A program made the translations under genes and the position numbers. A stretch of DNA of 62,954 bases, filler included, from Globobulimina sp. (lineage: Eukaryota): assembly GCA_003354225.1 (NCBI GenBank). It is 56 parts of 56 records of this genome, joined end to end, with 100 filler letters (N's around TTAATTAATTAA, not from the genome) between each part and the next. Parts side by side here need not be neighbours in the genome. Positions count along the whole stretch, not along the records: positions 54,055 to 55,079 come from PIVH01025480.1; 55 more parts are not named here. One strand, 5' to 3'. Each line of letters begins with the position of its first letter. Positions within the stretch are counted from its first letter, which is position 1. Under the pieces are notes generated by a model that worked only from the letters and a program-made list of their open reading frames with translations, was not told where the DNA came from and searched no databases. Below are positions 5,278-59,559 of the stretch, piece by piece.

Positions 5278-5535
5278 TTAATTCTCCTTTAAAACAATGC
5301 TCGATCCTTTAAAATATGTATGCATACAAACAACCAAATAATATGTTTTTTCCAACTGTACATTCCTAAAAGCAATTCCTTGATCACTCCCATTTACTGA
5401 ATATCCCATTTCTTGTTTTTCAAAATCAACTCTCATTTCAATCACATCACCGGCACCCCATTCAATTCCATATTCTTCATCTTTTCCTAAATGGCATTTA
5501 CCACCACATACATTATATCCATAATCTATCTCATC
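5278..5535 (-). CDS. SPRY/B30.2-like domain protein C-terminus, close paralog of 54104..54802 (not in ORF track)
   Basis: Translates as ...YGIEWGAGDVIEMRVDFEKQEMGYSVNGSDQGIAFRNVQLEKTYYLVV...IVLKEN*, near-identical to 54450-54715. Confidence 0.85.
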   Translation of the reverse strand, partial: DEIDYGYNVCGGKCHLGKDEEYGIEWGAGDVIEMRVDFEKQEMGYSVNGSDQGIAFRNVQLEKTYYLVVCMHTYFKGSSIVLKEN

Positions 5536-7392: not shown

Positions 7393-8051
7393 GTTCTTTT
7401 TGCGCTCCATCACTATTTGTGTTATACAGTAAACAAATCACTGCACTTTTTTTGTTGCAATTCTATTTTTGATTGATTGATTTTTGAGTTTTTTAAATTG
7501 TCGGAGGAAAAGAGTTACATAGATCTACAGTATGCAATTCGTATTACACCGATAGGAAATATGATGTGTAGTTAACTTAGAATATAATTTATTGGTTAAG
7601 TTTGATTAAAACCCCCACGAACAGCAAAAAAATAAAAAGTAAAAAAATAAAACCTGCATAATTTGCAATACAAAACATAATTAAAACACAAACAGAAAAA
7701 ATATTAGACCCCGAAAACAGAAAAGAAGTTATTTTTTCACAGCTGGATTTGGAGTGAATTGTACAACTAAATAAATAATATGCGATGCGNNNNNNNNNNN
7801 NNNNNNNNNNNNNNNNNNNNNNNNNNNNNNNNNTTAATTAATTAANNNNNNNNNNNNNNNNNNNNNNNNNNNNNNNNNNNNNNNNNNNNTGACGGAATTA
7901 GCAAGCACCAACGTACGACAACAAATATTCTAGCACTTATCCAACACAACAATATTCTTAATTTAATTATTAATGGAGACAACAAGTGGGTAAATAGTAT
8001 ACGAAATTCAATTTATAAATATACAATTTATATACTTCACTTGTGTCAAAG

Positions 8052-9281: not shown

Positions 9282-9352
9282 TCACACGCCATGATTTGAA
9301 CCTGGATTCCCTGCATAAAAGCAGTGCTCTACCAATTGAGCTATACGTGTGA
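9282..9352 (-). pseudogene. Degenerate tRNA-like element
   Basis: TCACACG/CGTGTGA acceptor stem, TAGCTCAATTGGTAGAGC D-arm, GGTTCAAATC T-loop; anticodon arm malformed (CTGC-TTTTAT-GCAG). Confidence 0.6.
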
Positions 9353-9456: not shown

Positions 9457-10043
9457 ATGAACAATGCTGTCAGGAAAAGACGATCCCAATTGTTAGTAAG
9501 TGGATACGTTAGAAAATGTAGCACTCCATACATCCATACAGATATTATTAGTATCATTCATGCGTTCCATTATTATATTTTATTGCTATTATATTCTATT
9601 GGAAGCAACGAAGACGGACAACAAGGAAACGGAGGAAATGAACATATTAGAAAAATAACAAAAATAAAAACATTTGAAAAAAAAATAAAAAATATTGTTA
9701 GTTGTGGTAGTTATGGTGGGGCAGCATATATTTTATTTGATGATGAAACATATGAATGTTGCGGTGATAATGGATGGGGTGTATTAGGTGTTGGACATTC
9801 TAATAATATTAATATATGGCATCAAATAAAAGATATGAAAATAAAAAATATATTTGCAGCACCAAATGGATCAGGACATTCATTTTGTATTTCAAATGAG
9901 AATAAATTATATGCTGTCGGACGGAATAAATATAATCAATTTGGGATAAAAACAAATACAGAAAATAATAATAAATGGACACCAATCAATACATCATTAT
10001 CGATTCAAAAAGTGGCCACAGCATGGTATTATACAACATTTTT
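9457..10043 (+). CDS. RCC1/BLIP-II repeat protein with N-terminal GY[IV]R module, 3' partial
   Basis: GSNEDGQQGNG, GDNGWGVLGVG, GRNKYNQFG repeats. Confidence 0.85.
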
Positions 10044-23488: not shown

Positions 23489-23815
23489 TTTGGACGACAT
23501 GAAGTTCTCAACAGCTGATATAAAAAACTAAATTCCTTTTGTTTGGGGGGGGGGGTCANNNNNNNNNNNNNNNNNNNNNNNNNNNNNNNNNNNNNNNNNN
23601 NNTTAATTAATTAANNNNNNNNNNNNNNNNNNNNNNNNNNNNNNNNNNNNNNNNNNNNCCACATTCCCTCCAAGTTCTTTAATAAATATCTTAATTTAAC
23701 AAATCAATTTAATAGTCATTAATGATTCAATGAATAGTAAATTCAAAAAAATAACATTTCTTTTGTCAATAAGATGTAACAATGTCTTTTTAGTTACTTA
23801 TAAATATGTAATAAA

Positions 23816-24172
23816 TTAAATATTTTGTTGAGATCTATAGGTTTTTATGTCGACATATTTATGTCGATGCCGATCAATTATATGTCGTATTCCCATAATT
23901 GGATGCTGAAATAACATTCTAGGTCCGGCAAACCGCATTACACCTTTTATTTTTTCCCGCATATCTTTGTGATAACAGTGTATTTCACAATCCGAGCAAA
24001 CCGGCTTATCATCTGGAAAAACACATAAGTCAATCCGTTTCGAGGCAAATTCATTTATTGCATTGCAATCATCACACATCTGATTTGTTACACTGTGATG
24101 ATGATTACAAAACATTTCAACCATGACTGAAAGCGTTTTTTTTTCGCGTTCAATTCTGTTATTCAGTTTCAT
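23816..24172 (-). CDS. ygbA: YgbA-family (nitrous oxide-stimulated promoter family) Cys-rich protein, bacterial
   Basis: RIEREKKT...MFC..HH, KPVCSDCEIHCY, VMRFAGPRMLFQHP. Confidence 0.85.
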   Translation of the reverse strand: MKLNNRIEREKKTLSVMVEMFCNHHHSVTNQMCDDCNAINEFASKRIDLCVFPDDKPVCSDCEIHCYHKDMREKIKGVMRFAGPRMLFQHPIMGIRHIIDRHRHKYVDIKTYRSQQNI

Positions 24173-24684
24173 GGAATAATGCTCACAATTTTTCTTGCTT
24201 CATTTAGTAATTTATTATTTTTCAGCATTTCTAGCGCCAATTTATTTATTTCAATATCAATAGAACTAATAATTTTCTCAGTTTTATCATTAACGTTTTT
24301 AGTAACTATAGTATTCACTTTATTAGCCTCGCTCAGAGCGATTCGGCGAACTGCAATATCAATTTTTTTATCAATATCCGAAATGATCTTTGTAGTATAT
24401 TTTTCTGATATTCCTGATATATCAATATTAATATAAAAATTAGAAATATTTTTAAGAATAGAATCAACTGTTGAAATTAGAATATTTTCTTTTTTGTTAT
24501 AATCACTAGTAAATGTCGTTTTGTTAAAATCAAATCTTAAGTTACCTGACAATTTGCCATCATCGACACGCAAAATAATTCCTTTATCAACAAATCCTCC
24601 CTCAAGATTTAATTTCCAATCATCAGTTATTATATATTCACTATTAATTATCTTTTGGCTCTTGATAATAAATGATATTTCATA
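24169..24684 (-). CDS. Bacterial hypothetical protein C-terminus, translationally coupled to ygbA
   Basis: ATGA stop/start overlap at 24169..24172. Confidence 0.6.
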   Translation of the reverse strand, partial: YEISFIIKSQKIINSEYIITDDWKLNLEGGFVDKGIILRVDDGKLSGNLRFDFNKTTFTSDYNKKENILISTVDSILKNISNFYINIDISGISEKYTTKIISDIDKKIDIAVRRIALSEANKVNTIVTKNVNDKTEKIISSIDIEINKLALEMLKNNKLLNEARKIVSIIP

Positions 24685-54103: not shown

Positions 54104-54802
54104 ATGGAGTTTTTAATTGTTAATGGCTACATACGAAAAGTTGAAAAAACAATCGAACCCAAAATCATTCCAATATCCATTAATCAGATTTGTTATAATT
54201 ATTATGGCTGTTATTATAAAAATATTGTAGACACATTCAAAACTGCTCATTATGGGATTACAATCTCAAACAATGGGAAAACTGTGACAAGCAAAGGTCA
54301 TGGTCGTGGTGGTCGTTATGGCAAAGCATTTGGAAGTATAGGAATTGAGGCAAGCAGCAAAAATAAATATAAATATAAATGGAAGTTGACATGTAAGCAA
54401 ATTAGAGGTGGAATATGCATTGGTATTCAACAAAACAGGAAGGTCTTTGCTGAGATAGATTATAATTATGGATATAATGGATGGGATGGTAAGATTCTTA
54501 AATACAATTTAGGAAAAGGTGAATATTATGGAATTGAATGGGATGTCGGTGATGTGATTGAAATGAGAGTTGATTTTGAAAAACAAGAACTGGGATATTC
54601 AGTAAATGGAATTGATCAAGGAATTGCTTTTCGGAATATACAGTTGGAAAAAACATATTATTTGGTTGTTTCTATGTATTTGGAGTGTAAAGGATCGAGC
54701 ATTGTTTTAAATGATTTCTGTAATTTTATGGAACAACAATGTGACCATAATGAAGTTGAAGAGCAAGAAAACAAAACACAATGTCCATGTATAATTATGT
54801 AA
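54104..54802 (+). CDS. SPRY/B30.2-like protein with N-terminal GYIR module and C-terminal CaaX (CPCIIM)
   Basis: YKWKL...ICIGI...GDVIEMRVDF...YSVNG.DQGIAF; ends CIIM*. Confidence 0.85.
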   Translation: MEFLIVNGYIRKVEKTIEPKIIPISINQICYNYYGCYYKNIVDTFKTAHYGITISNNGKTVTSKGHGRGGRYGKAFGSIGIEASSKNKYKYKWKLTCKQIRGGICIGIQQNRKVFAEIDYNYGYNGWDGKILKYNLGKGEYYGIEWDVGDVIEMRVDFEKQELGYSVNGIDQGIAFRNIQLEKTYYLVVSMYLECKGSSIVLNDFCNFMEQQCDHNEVEEQENKTQCPCIIM

Positions 54803-55179
54803 ATATAATGTAATTTCATCTGTAACTGAATAATAATTGTTTTCTTAGTGTTTTGAAGTGTTTGTGTATTAATATTAAAGTAATGGCAGACGTTTTAAAC
54901 ACCAGTCCGTCGATGAACAGTGTGAGTGTGTCGTACGACACCTCCTTCGACTCCCCCTCCAATTACACAATTGACTTTGGCCAACTAAGTGATTTTCGAG
55001 ACCGTTACATTTCATGTCTCCAATGTCTACACTTGTCTTTTAGATTGGCGATCCTAAATATGAATCTCATTCATGAATTNNNNNNNNNNNNNNNNNNNNN
55101 NNNNNNNNNNNNNNNNNNNNNNNTTAATTAATTAANNNNNNNNNNNNNNNNNNNNNNNNNNNNNNNNNNNNNNNNNNNN

Positions 55180-58899: not shown

Positions 58900-59559
58900 T
58901 TACATCACTAATTGTATATAGTCCGTTTCCCCGGCATTGATTGCCACAGCCAATGACAAATCACCTTTCAACTCAACAGAAATGGCGTTACCATATTCTC
59001 GATTATTAATTGCATATCTTAGAAACACTGACTTCGACACAGTTTTGTGATGGTCAATCTCCACTGATATAACATCACCATATCCAATCACCATATTCCT
59101 ACTTTTGCCACAATAGTCATTCCCTGATGCACCACCTGAATAAATCAGACAATCAAACAAACAAAACCCAACACCGCCATATTCTCTATCCGTGAAATCA
59201 GTAATCTTTCCATGGCCATATTGTGTAATCTTTGCAGTCTCCAAAATGCCAACAATAATCCAACAACGCGCCCGTTTCTCACTGCGAATTATATTCGATT
59301 CCATATTTTGAACCAACCTCAATTTCTTGACAACTTTGCTTCCTTTTCCTATCACATCAGCAGCAAAGGCTGTTATCCATCCTCTCGAACATGGATATTT
59401 CCTACGAATCATATCCGAATATACAACAATGTCTTCATGCATATTATAGACAGTCCAGCATTGATACCACATCGCACAAAGTTGCATTATATCCAATGGC
59501 AACAAGACCAAGCTATTCTGGCGAATATAGCCAAAAACCAACAACTCGTTTCTGTTCAT
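58900..59559 (-). CDS. SPRY-like protein with N-terminal GYIR module
   Basis: LLVFGYIRQ; IIVGI...GDVISVEID...LRYAIN.REYG.A. Confidence 0.75.
   Translation of the reverse strand: MNRNELLVFGYIRQNSLVLLPLDIMQLCAMWYQCWTVYNMHEDIVVYSDMIRRKYPCSRGWITAFAADVIGKGSKVVKKLRLVQNMESNIIRSEKRARCWIIVGILETAKITQYGHGKITDFTDREYGGVGFCLFDCLIYSGGASGNDYCGKSRNMVIGYGDVISVEIDHHKTVSKSVFLRYAINNREYGNAISVELKGDLSLAVAINAGETDYIQLVM

Follow-up and report, generated by a model that had tools for sequence, protein, structure and literature searches.

Globobulimina sp., a foraminifer whose genome is represented by the assembly GCA_003354225.1, encodes proteins carrying a conserved module of about 33 residues, hereafter the GYIR box. 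This box was found to be an autonomous and portable unit, which is usually located at the extreme N-terminus and is joined to interchangeable bodies. It is probably a docking handle placed on swappable recognition domains, and we propose more tentatively that the handle docks to the machinery of a ubiquitin ligase. The DNA analyzed, hereafter the window, is a stretch of 62,954 bases composed of 56 separate contigs of 1025-1027 bp each, with spacers (N/TTAATTAATTAA) between them; it is eukaryotic and AT-rich.

GYIR Boxes and Their Open Reading Frames in the Window

The same module opens three open reading frames (ORFs), which are located on 3 of the 56 contigs (Table 1) and represent independent loci because these contigs are separate. 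The first-pass annotation, made from the sequence alone, had quoted the three segments at 54104 (+), 59559 (−), and 9457 (+); all were located there and translate as quoted, and its remark that the contigs begin with the module holds for the ORFs but not for the contigs. An alignment of the three copies showed L, V, G, Y, R, and I to be invariant. The 1262 six-frame segments of the window were all compared with a profile of 38 members of the module, which recovered the three copies with E-values of 1e-16 to 1e-19 and the next best segment with 0.042, a gap indicating that the occurrence on 3 of 56 contigs is far above chance.

A stop codon lies in frame 4 codons upstream of the ATG of the protein P0001, so that the module is the genuine N-terminus of P0001. 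The frame upstream of P0002 is open for all 6 codons to the contig end, and its start is likely, though not bounded by a stop codon. The box of P0003 departs from the usual pattern by having His for Pro and Ile for Cys, and shares 79-90% module identity with P0047, P0048, and P0011, which are its paralogs or orthologs. The family loci in the window thus number four among 56 contigs when the C-terminal fragment at 5278-5535 is counted, which matched both the family SPRY hidden Markov model (HMM; E = 1.2e-22) and PF00622 (E = 1.5e-10) and exhibited 72% identity to P0001.

Table 1. Members of the GYIR-box family in the window and their parts (positions count along the whole window).
Feature	Position	Strand	Description
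P0001 ORF	54104..54802	+	Complete, 232 aa + stop; GYIR box, short linker, SPRY (approximately residues 45-208)
P0001 GYIR box	54104..54205	+	Residues 1-34; MEFLIVNGYIRK, loop, IIPISINQICYNYY; module profile E = 4.8e-16
Variable SPRY patches of P0001	54398..54505	+	Residues 99-106 and 113-134; mostly predicted loops
Third variable SPRY patch of P0001	54677-54694	+	Residues 192-197
P0002 ORF	58900..59559	−	219 aa + stop; GYIR box and divergent SPRY-like body
P0002 GYIR box	59443..59559	−	Residues 1-39; MNRNELLVFGYIRQ, loop, LLPLDIMQLCAMWY; module profile E = 1.2e-19
P0003 ORF	9457..10043	+	Box followed at once by RCC1 repeats; cut at contig end 10043; ATG preceded by in-frame stop
P0003 GYIR box	9469..9585	+	Residues 5-43; RKRRSQLLVSGYVRK, loop, YIHTDIISIIHAFHYY; module profile E = 7.9e-17
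Fourth family member	5278..5535	−	C-terminal 85 aa of a P0001-like SPRY protein; N-terminus (any module) beyond contig end

Bodies behind the Three Boxes

The body of P0001 was assigned as a SPRY domain (PF00622, E = 2.8e-9). A Foldseek search with its model gave the SPRY domains of TRIM67, TRIM9, and Ash2L (E = 1.8e-11 to 3e-11) and also those of RanBP9/10 (approximately 1e-11), and the fold matches further include PDB 2fnj and 8okx. No Pfam match was obtained for P0002 at E ≤ 1. Its body matched a family SPRY HMM that had been built without P0002 (E = 8.6e-9), so that the SPRY label stands in a divergent form, and P0002 is alignable with 19 family members. The body of P0003 is an RCC1-like propeller (PF00415, E = 2e-10; PF25390, E = 5.3e-17), for which the longer relative P0048 gave E = 7.9e-37 with PF25390. 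The assignment of two bodies to SPRY and one to RCC1 that had been read from the sequence at first was hence confirmed, by PF00622 for P0001, by RCC1 for P0003, and by the family HMM for the divergent SPRY of P0002.

A second RCC1-like ORF spans an entire contig (43927-44952, −; PF25390, E = 6e-50), with both ends beyond the contig. It shares only 24-26% identity with the box-bearing RCC1 subfamily, and any N-terminal box of its own would lie beyond the contig.

The Family beyond the Window

The three window copies were built into a profile, which gave 40 clusters at E ≤ 1e-3 when searched against 1.84 billion representative proteins. Three of them (P0008, P0040, and P0044) were set aside as simple repeats after inspection, and the 37 genuine clusters all exhibited a first block [RK]x[DE]-LLVxGY[IV]R, 6-20 variable residues, and a second block IPxDIxxLCxx[FY]Y. 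The protein set examined below was collected from the profile matches, two word-indexed searches, and one cluster member, and consists of 59 proteins, or 56 after dropping the three repeat proteins. The box was detected at a domain E < 1e-3 in 53 of these 56, the others being P0006, P0007, and the fragment P0059, all three of which are without their N-terminus. One word-indexed search, in which the 38-module alignment was compared with longer proteins, gave at least 21 matches from a candidate list saturated at 7999 and underestimates the family; a separate one, with residues 1-40 of P0001, gave 1 candidate, a known ortholog, the index being too coarse for a query of 40 residues. The module alone found no usable match in the ESM Atlas.

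The family is hence not small, and its module matched no described domain; a small family or a described domain would have spoken against the first-pass annotation: beside the 37 genuine clusters, the 38 modules gave 0 relevant matches in Pfam (2025 copy) at E ≤ 10, where only three single-member chance rows were listed (E = 0.09-0.17).

Species labels were available for 13 proteins (12 of the 30 that were looked up and the cluster member P0058), all of which are from rotaliid foraminifera, namely Bolivina argentea (9), Globobulimina turgida (2), and Nonionella stella (2). Among the 30, the 18 without a species label are from NCBI, ENA, JGI, or Logan contigs, and the range of the box so far seen is foraminifera, as judged from the labelled copies alone. 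Relatives are also contained in the EukProt entries of Globobulimina, Bolivina, and Nonionella, which we take to be transcriptome-derived; a look-up of RNA data sets for the P0001 contig itself gave none. A tblastn search of phage records with P0001 gave no match, and for metagenome contigs searched with the three-sequence module alignment, 128 stretches were matched and 0 were confirmed.

Metagenome contigs were also searched with a degenerate DNA pattern for LVFGYIRQ, and its 118 loci were rejected, since none, with the possible exception of L044, continues into the second half of the box, and the matches resemble chance occurrences. This locus (54-1085, +) contains a 343-aa ORF with ...RDRYLVFGYIRQ... 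near the C-terminus and a degenerate second half without Pro, which could be a reversed architecture or else a chance match.

Anatomy and Position of the Box

The loop between the two blocks tolerates 0-11 extra residues. The second block is an amphipathic helix, in which I, I, LC, and FY are positioned at i, i+3, i+6/7, and i+10/11. The sole invariant residue of the 38-member alignment is a glycine inside the first block, and this block is conserved contiguously; the two features together make its helical assignment uncertain. AlphaFold2, run for the module alone with the 38-sequence alignment, predicted a helix at residues 3-14, a loop, and a helix at residues 22-39 over 40 residues, for which the predicted local distance difference test score (pLDDT) ranged from 61 to 86 (mean 75; approximately 85 in the second helix). 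For full-length P0001, the pLDDT was 43-71 in the box and mostly 81-96 in the SPRY body, which begins about 10 residues past the box in the model, and the box showed no confident packing on this body. A poorly defined box beside a confidently modeled SPRY body is as expected for a part that would require a partner.

The box starts at or before residue 30 in 43 of the 53 proteins and is internal in the remaining 10. Five proteins with an internal box (P0018, P0025, P0043, P0049, and P0053) start with MG and small or Cys residues, as exemplified by MGACC, MGTCC, and MGGIC. These starts resemble sites of N-myristoylation and palmitoylation, and hint that part of the family may be anchored to membranes.

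Partner Domains

The majority of the members exhibited no Pfam match at all, or SPRY alone. SPRY partners were assigned in 8 proteins by Pfam at E ≤ 1e-3 and in 12 more, which are SPRY-like, by alignment alone. RCC1 partners were found in 5 proteins, two of them weak, and Kelch partners in P0017, P0058, and weakly in P0030. The other partners are RasGEF with RanBP2-type zinc fingers (P0016), FKBP (P0009), and ZZ (P0035). The partners are hence mostly SPRY, Kelch, and RCC1, the classical substrate-receptor domains that had been anticipated. Comparison of P0001 (SPRY) with P0058 (Kelch) showed that their boxes are 74% identical and the rest of the proteins 26%, which bears out the initial view of a discrete module carried on swappable domains.

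Two of the multidomain members have a more elaborate layout. P0009 (1608 aa, ENA contig) consists of a recurring repeat of approximately 330 residues, each composed of a Pro-rich linker, a GYIR-like box, and an uncharacterised domain. Four boxes were detected in it, and the repeats are followed by two FKBP domains with one box between them. P0016, a protein of 902 aa from Bolivina argentea, has two boxes, one on each side of the region that precedes the RasGEF catalytic domain, and a weak match to a PUB domain was obtained (E = 0.05); together with the RanBP2-type zinc fingers, it makes a weak link to ubiquitin/p97 biology possible.

Copy Number and Diversification of the SPRY Domain

Contigs aligning to the P0001 ORF were examined in four runs from three studies, which gave 127, 207, 364, and 381 contigs at 85-100% likeness, including 30-61 per run at ≥ 99%; depth in this comparison does not equal copy number, and the samples may mix several species. 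Several contigs per run diverge from the reference exactly at position 54401 and rejoin it at 54498-54500, which are the borders of the variable patches; positions 54685-54860 and beyond on the P0001 contig had no cover. These counts and this divergence fit the presence of many diverged copies. The first-pass annotation had taken three hits in 56 contigs to imply a very large family; the family is indeed large, as the 40 clusters (37 genuine) among 1.84 billion proteins, the 53 box proteins, and the 127-381 contigs per run indicate, but the rate of 3-4 in 56 cannot be scaled to the genome, because multicopy genes are over-represented among the 1-kb contigs of a fragmented assembly.

Diversification was evaluated by protein identity in addition to the contig divergence. 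The pairwise identity among 6 close relatives was 45% for the patch at residues 99-106, 51% for 113-134, and 29% for 192-197, as against 89-93% for the SPRY core next to the patches and 90% for the module. These patches are located mostly between strands, in loops of the P0001 model. Furthermore, the module of P0001 is 88% identical to those of its Globobulimina turgida and NCBI relatives, for which the remainder of the protein gave 70-72%. The box is hence near-constant, while the SPRY loops vary among many paralogs.

A Probable Docking Handle and Its Possible Partner

A helical hairpin of 33 residues can do little alone, which makes a docking handle its most likely role. The constancy of the hairpin, the swapping of the bodies, and the variation of their loops are best explained by a handle to one common partner. 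We regard it as probable that the GYIR box serves as such a handle on swappable recognition domains. The box would then connect a large and diversifying set of binding domains to this single partner, for which an adaptor or scaffold of a ubiquitin ligase would be the most likely class, and the proteins carrying it would be substrate receptors analogous, not homologous, to the F-box and SOCS-box proteins. Docking to a ubiquitin ligase, which is argued by analogy, is a tentative proposal and may well prove wrong. It is favored because SPRY, Kelch, and RCC1 dominate the partners, because a constant handle is combined with variable loops, and because the box is N-terminal and helical. The repertoire of SPRY, Kelch, and RCC1 is that of the known cullin-RING receptors. 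Among the language-model neighbors of P0002 are clusters of F-box-SPRY and SOCS-box proteins (scores 0.88-0.90), which is a lead only. As a blended judgement weighted toward the ligase claim, this explanation is the best overall, and we give it somewhat less than an even chance.

Several observations weigh against a ligase-docking role. The models for F-box (PF00646), F-box-like (PF12937), SOCS_box (PF07525), PRANC (PF09372), BTB (PF00651), and other ligase boxes matched 0 of the 38 modules at E ≤ 10 and no scanned full-length member (E ≤ 1, 0.1, or 0.01), where the HMMER filters discard very weak matches and remote F-box homology could escape. The module profile found nothing above chance among solved chains, the best being CpcN (E = 0.19) and Cdc50 (E = 0.6). 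With approximately 33 residues and two predicted helices, the module is smaller than the F-box and the SOCS box with their three helices over 40-50 residues. No ubiquitin-system gene was linked to any copy, each contig carrying essentially one gene. Ligase boxes that occur once per protein are seldom multicopy or internal, and the GYIR box is present in 2-4 copies in 3 of the 53 proteins (P0009, P0016, and P0026) and internal in 10, five of which have it behind the MG start. RasGEF, FKBP, and ZZ, moreover, are atypical as receptor bodies.

Structural comparison of the module was of little discriminating power. Foldseek with the 40-residue model gave one row (E = 8.7), which is uninformative, and VIA-align against 48,161 chains gave a best Z of 4.0 for unrelated helical hairpins, with no D/D (docking-and-dimerization), F-box, or SOCS chain among the 50 best, the hairpin being too small. 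Likeness by eye to the PIP box, IQ motif, DDB1 H-box, RHIM, and BTB N-terminus was also considered, and was dropped for misfitting spacing or for want of profile support.

Alternative Readings of the Box

The box may instead be a very divergent RIIa/DPY-30 D/D domain, by which recognition and signaling bodies would be anchored to an AKAP-like scaffold; we consider this unlikely, though a rival to be taken seriously. D/D domains are helix-turn-helix units that pair as an X-type four-helix bundle and grip amphipathic helices of scaffolds, and the stretch LL.G[YF] in helix 1 of the box is RII/DPY-30-like. The module alone is likewise predicted as a helix-loop-helix of 40 residues, and in the 38-member alignment Pro at the start of helix 2 and Ile three residues on are each conserved at ≥ 90%. 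An aromatic pair [FY][YHW] is located late in this helix, a likeness at the level of pattern for which convergence or chance is possible, and the tandem boxes of P0026 would be in keeping with a self-pairing module. According to PMC8339350, type-II-like D/D domains are marked by a loop proline, replacement of a second proline by Ile, Leu, or Val, and a conserved YF in helix II. The paper describes a superfamily of approximately 40-residue helix-loop-helix domains that are, like the GYIR box, mostly N-terminal and attached to very different bodies, including adenylate kinases, enolase, an EF-hand protein, and the F-box protein FBXL13, and its partner list is without SPRY, Kelch, and RCC1. PF02197 (RIIa) and PF05186 (Dpy-30), however, matched 0 of the 38 modules at E ≤ 10 and no full-length member, and no PKA-R, DPY-30, or SPA17 chain appeared at E ≤ 10 in the PDB profile search, whose power is weak for a domain of 38 residues. 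The insertions of up to 11 residues between the blocks also differ from the continuous helix I and tight turn of D/D domains. Furthermore, the likeness was found after about ten motif families had been compared by eye, so that chance is a real option. A predicted complex of two module copies scored 0.02 against a mark of 0.32, in a run without alignment and without controls, and this score speaks neither for nor against self-association. The D/D and ligase readings are in principle compatible, since a ligase scaffold could be the docking site of a D/D-like hairpin.

Another lineage-specific interaction or targeting element, such as a tether to reticulopodial microtubules or membranes or a self-templating signaling motif like those that sensors and effectors have in common in other immune-like systems, is judged just as unlikely. 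The data on portability and conservation are equally compatible with such an element. The five members with MG and small residues (P0018, P0025, P0043, P0049, and P0053) suggest lipid anchoring, and the partners include RasGEF, FKBP, and EF-hand-like tails. The stretch LLVxGYIR is conserved contiguously and not on one helical face, and with a pLDDT of only 43-67 it may form a strand-turn-strand. Nothing, however, points positively to a particular partner of this kind, and a receptor family better accounts for the prevalence of SPRY, Kelch, and RCC1 bodies.

It is very improbable that the box is an intramolecular N-terminal cap, or a non-functional leftover of a duplicated leader exon, with no partner of its own: it does abut the body (approximately 5 residues separate it from the first RCC1 blade in P0003), and each box of P0009 precedes a repeat of the same uncharacterised domain, but no single cap can suit SPRY sandwiches, the propellers of Kelch and RCC1, and the all-helical RasGEF alike, AlphaFold2 gave no confident packing on the SPRY body, and the box is more conserved than the bodies, which argues for a function.

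Implications of the Docking-Handle Reading

Foraminifera are giant, long-lived cells that are exposed to symbionts and pathogens, and they play a major role in marine carbon and nitrogen cycling; molecular studies of their cell biology are, to our knowledge, still very few. One handle conserved on dozens to hundreds of recognition-domain proteins represents a system that is invisible to current annotation. The fullest version of the docking-handle reading is a foraminiferal ligase-docking box, unrelated in sequence to F-box, SOCS-box, BTB, and PRANC, which would connect a very large repertoire of diversifying SPRY, Kelch, and RCC1 receptors to a cullin-RING or other E3 core for immune-like or proteostasis surveillance; this version we hold to be doubtful. 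If ligase docking is true, it would constitute a fifth independent route to swappable substrate receptors and the first entry to foraminiferal protein turnover or self/non-self surveillance. With a D/D-type anchor, the D/D superfamily would instead gain a new lineage and new partner domains. With either reading, the box is usable as a bait for its partner, and its profile lets the family be counted in foraminiferal data sets.

Other Features of the Window

Pfam matches on the ORFs of the window include PCNA, RabGAP-TBC, CAP-Gly, SAM, a retroelement integrase, and one bacterial-type gene. The last is YgbA_NO (PF11756, a bacterial family; E = 1.5e-40), located at 23819-24199 (−) on the contig 23659-24684 (27.7% GC), which is probably from an associated bacterium and not from the foraminifer. 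The integrase occupies a whole contig at 34919-35944 (+; Integrase_H2C2, E = 3e-18; rve, E = 1e-10). Rfam called a tRNA (RF00005, 34.3 bits, E = 0.002) at 9283-9350 (−), approximately 110 bp upstream of the P0003 start and on the opposite strand; ARAGORN detected zero tRNAs over the whole window. Skp1 was not found in the window by Pfam scans of 86 and 150 six-frame segments.

Comparison with Known Systems

The closest analogs of the GYIR-box proteins are the F-box receptors with similar bodies, such as FBXO45/FSN-1 (F-box and SPRY), FBXO24 (F-box and RCC1), and the plant F-box-Kelch proteins. Both groups combine a short N-terminal helical box with a swappable recognition domain, and both exhibit large lineage expansions in which the box is constant and the binding surfaces are variable. 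The start of the F-box also resembles the opening [IL]Px[DE]I of helix 2 in the GYIR box. The F-box differs in consisting of approximately 45 residues and three helices, as against approximately 33 residues and two predicted helices; its further helices are located downstream, whereas the GYIR box has the LLVxGY[IV]R block upstream and is present in 2-4 copies in some proteins.

The SOCS-box SPRY proteins (SPSB1-4 and GUSTAVUS) are similarly small SPRY proteins with a short helical box. Their SOCS box docks the SPRY protein onto the ligase adaptor Elongin B/C, and ligands are bound through variable loops of the SPRY domain; the PDB entries 2fnj and 8okx among the fold matches of P0001 are of this group. 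The two boxes occupy opposite ends of the protein, C-terminal for SOCS and N-terminal for GYIR. The GYIR box gave no PF07525 match, and the Cys of the SOCS BC-box and the conserved Cys of the GYIR box differ in spacing.

Diversifying receptor repertoires are known from the finTRIM and NLR-B30.2 proteins of fish and from the F-box and MATH-BTB expansions of nematodes and plants. Repertoires of this kind and the present family both comprise numerous paralogs in which handle and framework stay constant and the variation is concentrated in patches of the SPRY loops; they are unlike it in that the host of the GYIR box is a unicellular rhizarian and its handle is without an existing model. The module was not described in the foraminiferal, Reticulomyxa, and SPRY/Kelch/RCC1 literature, as judged from titles and abstracts. 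The box, its sequence, and its lineage are hence new as far as seen, whereas the principle, by which recognition domains are swapped behind a short docking box, is already known from these other systems.

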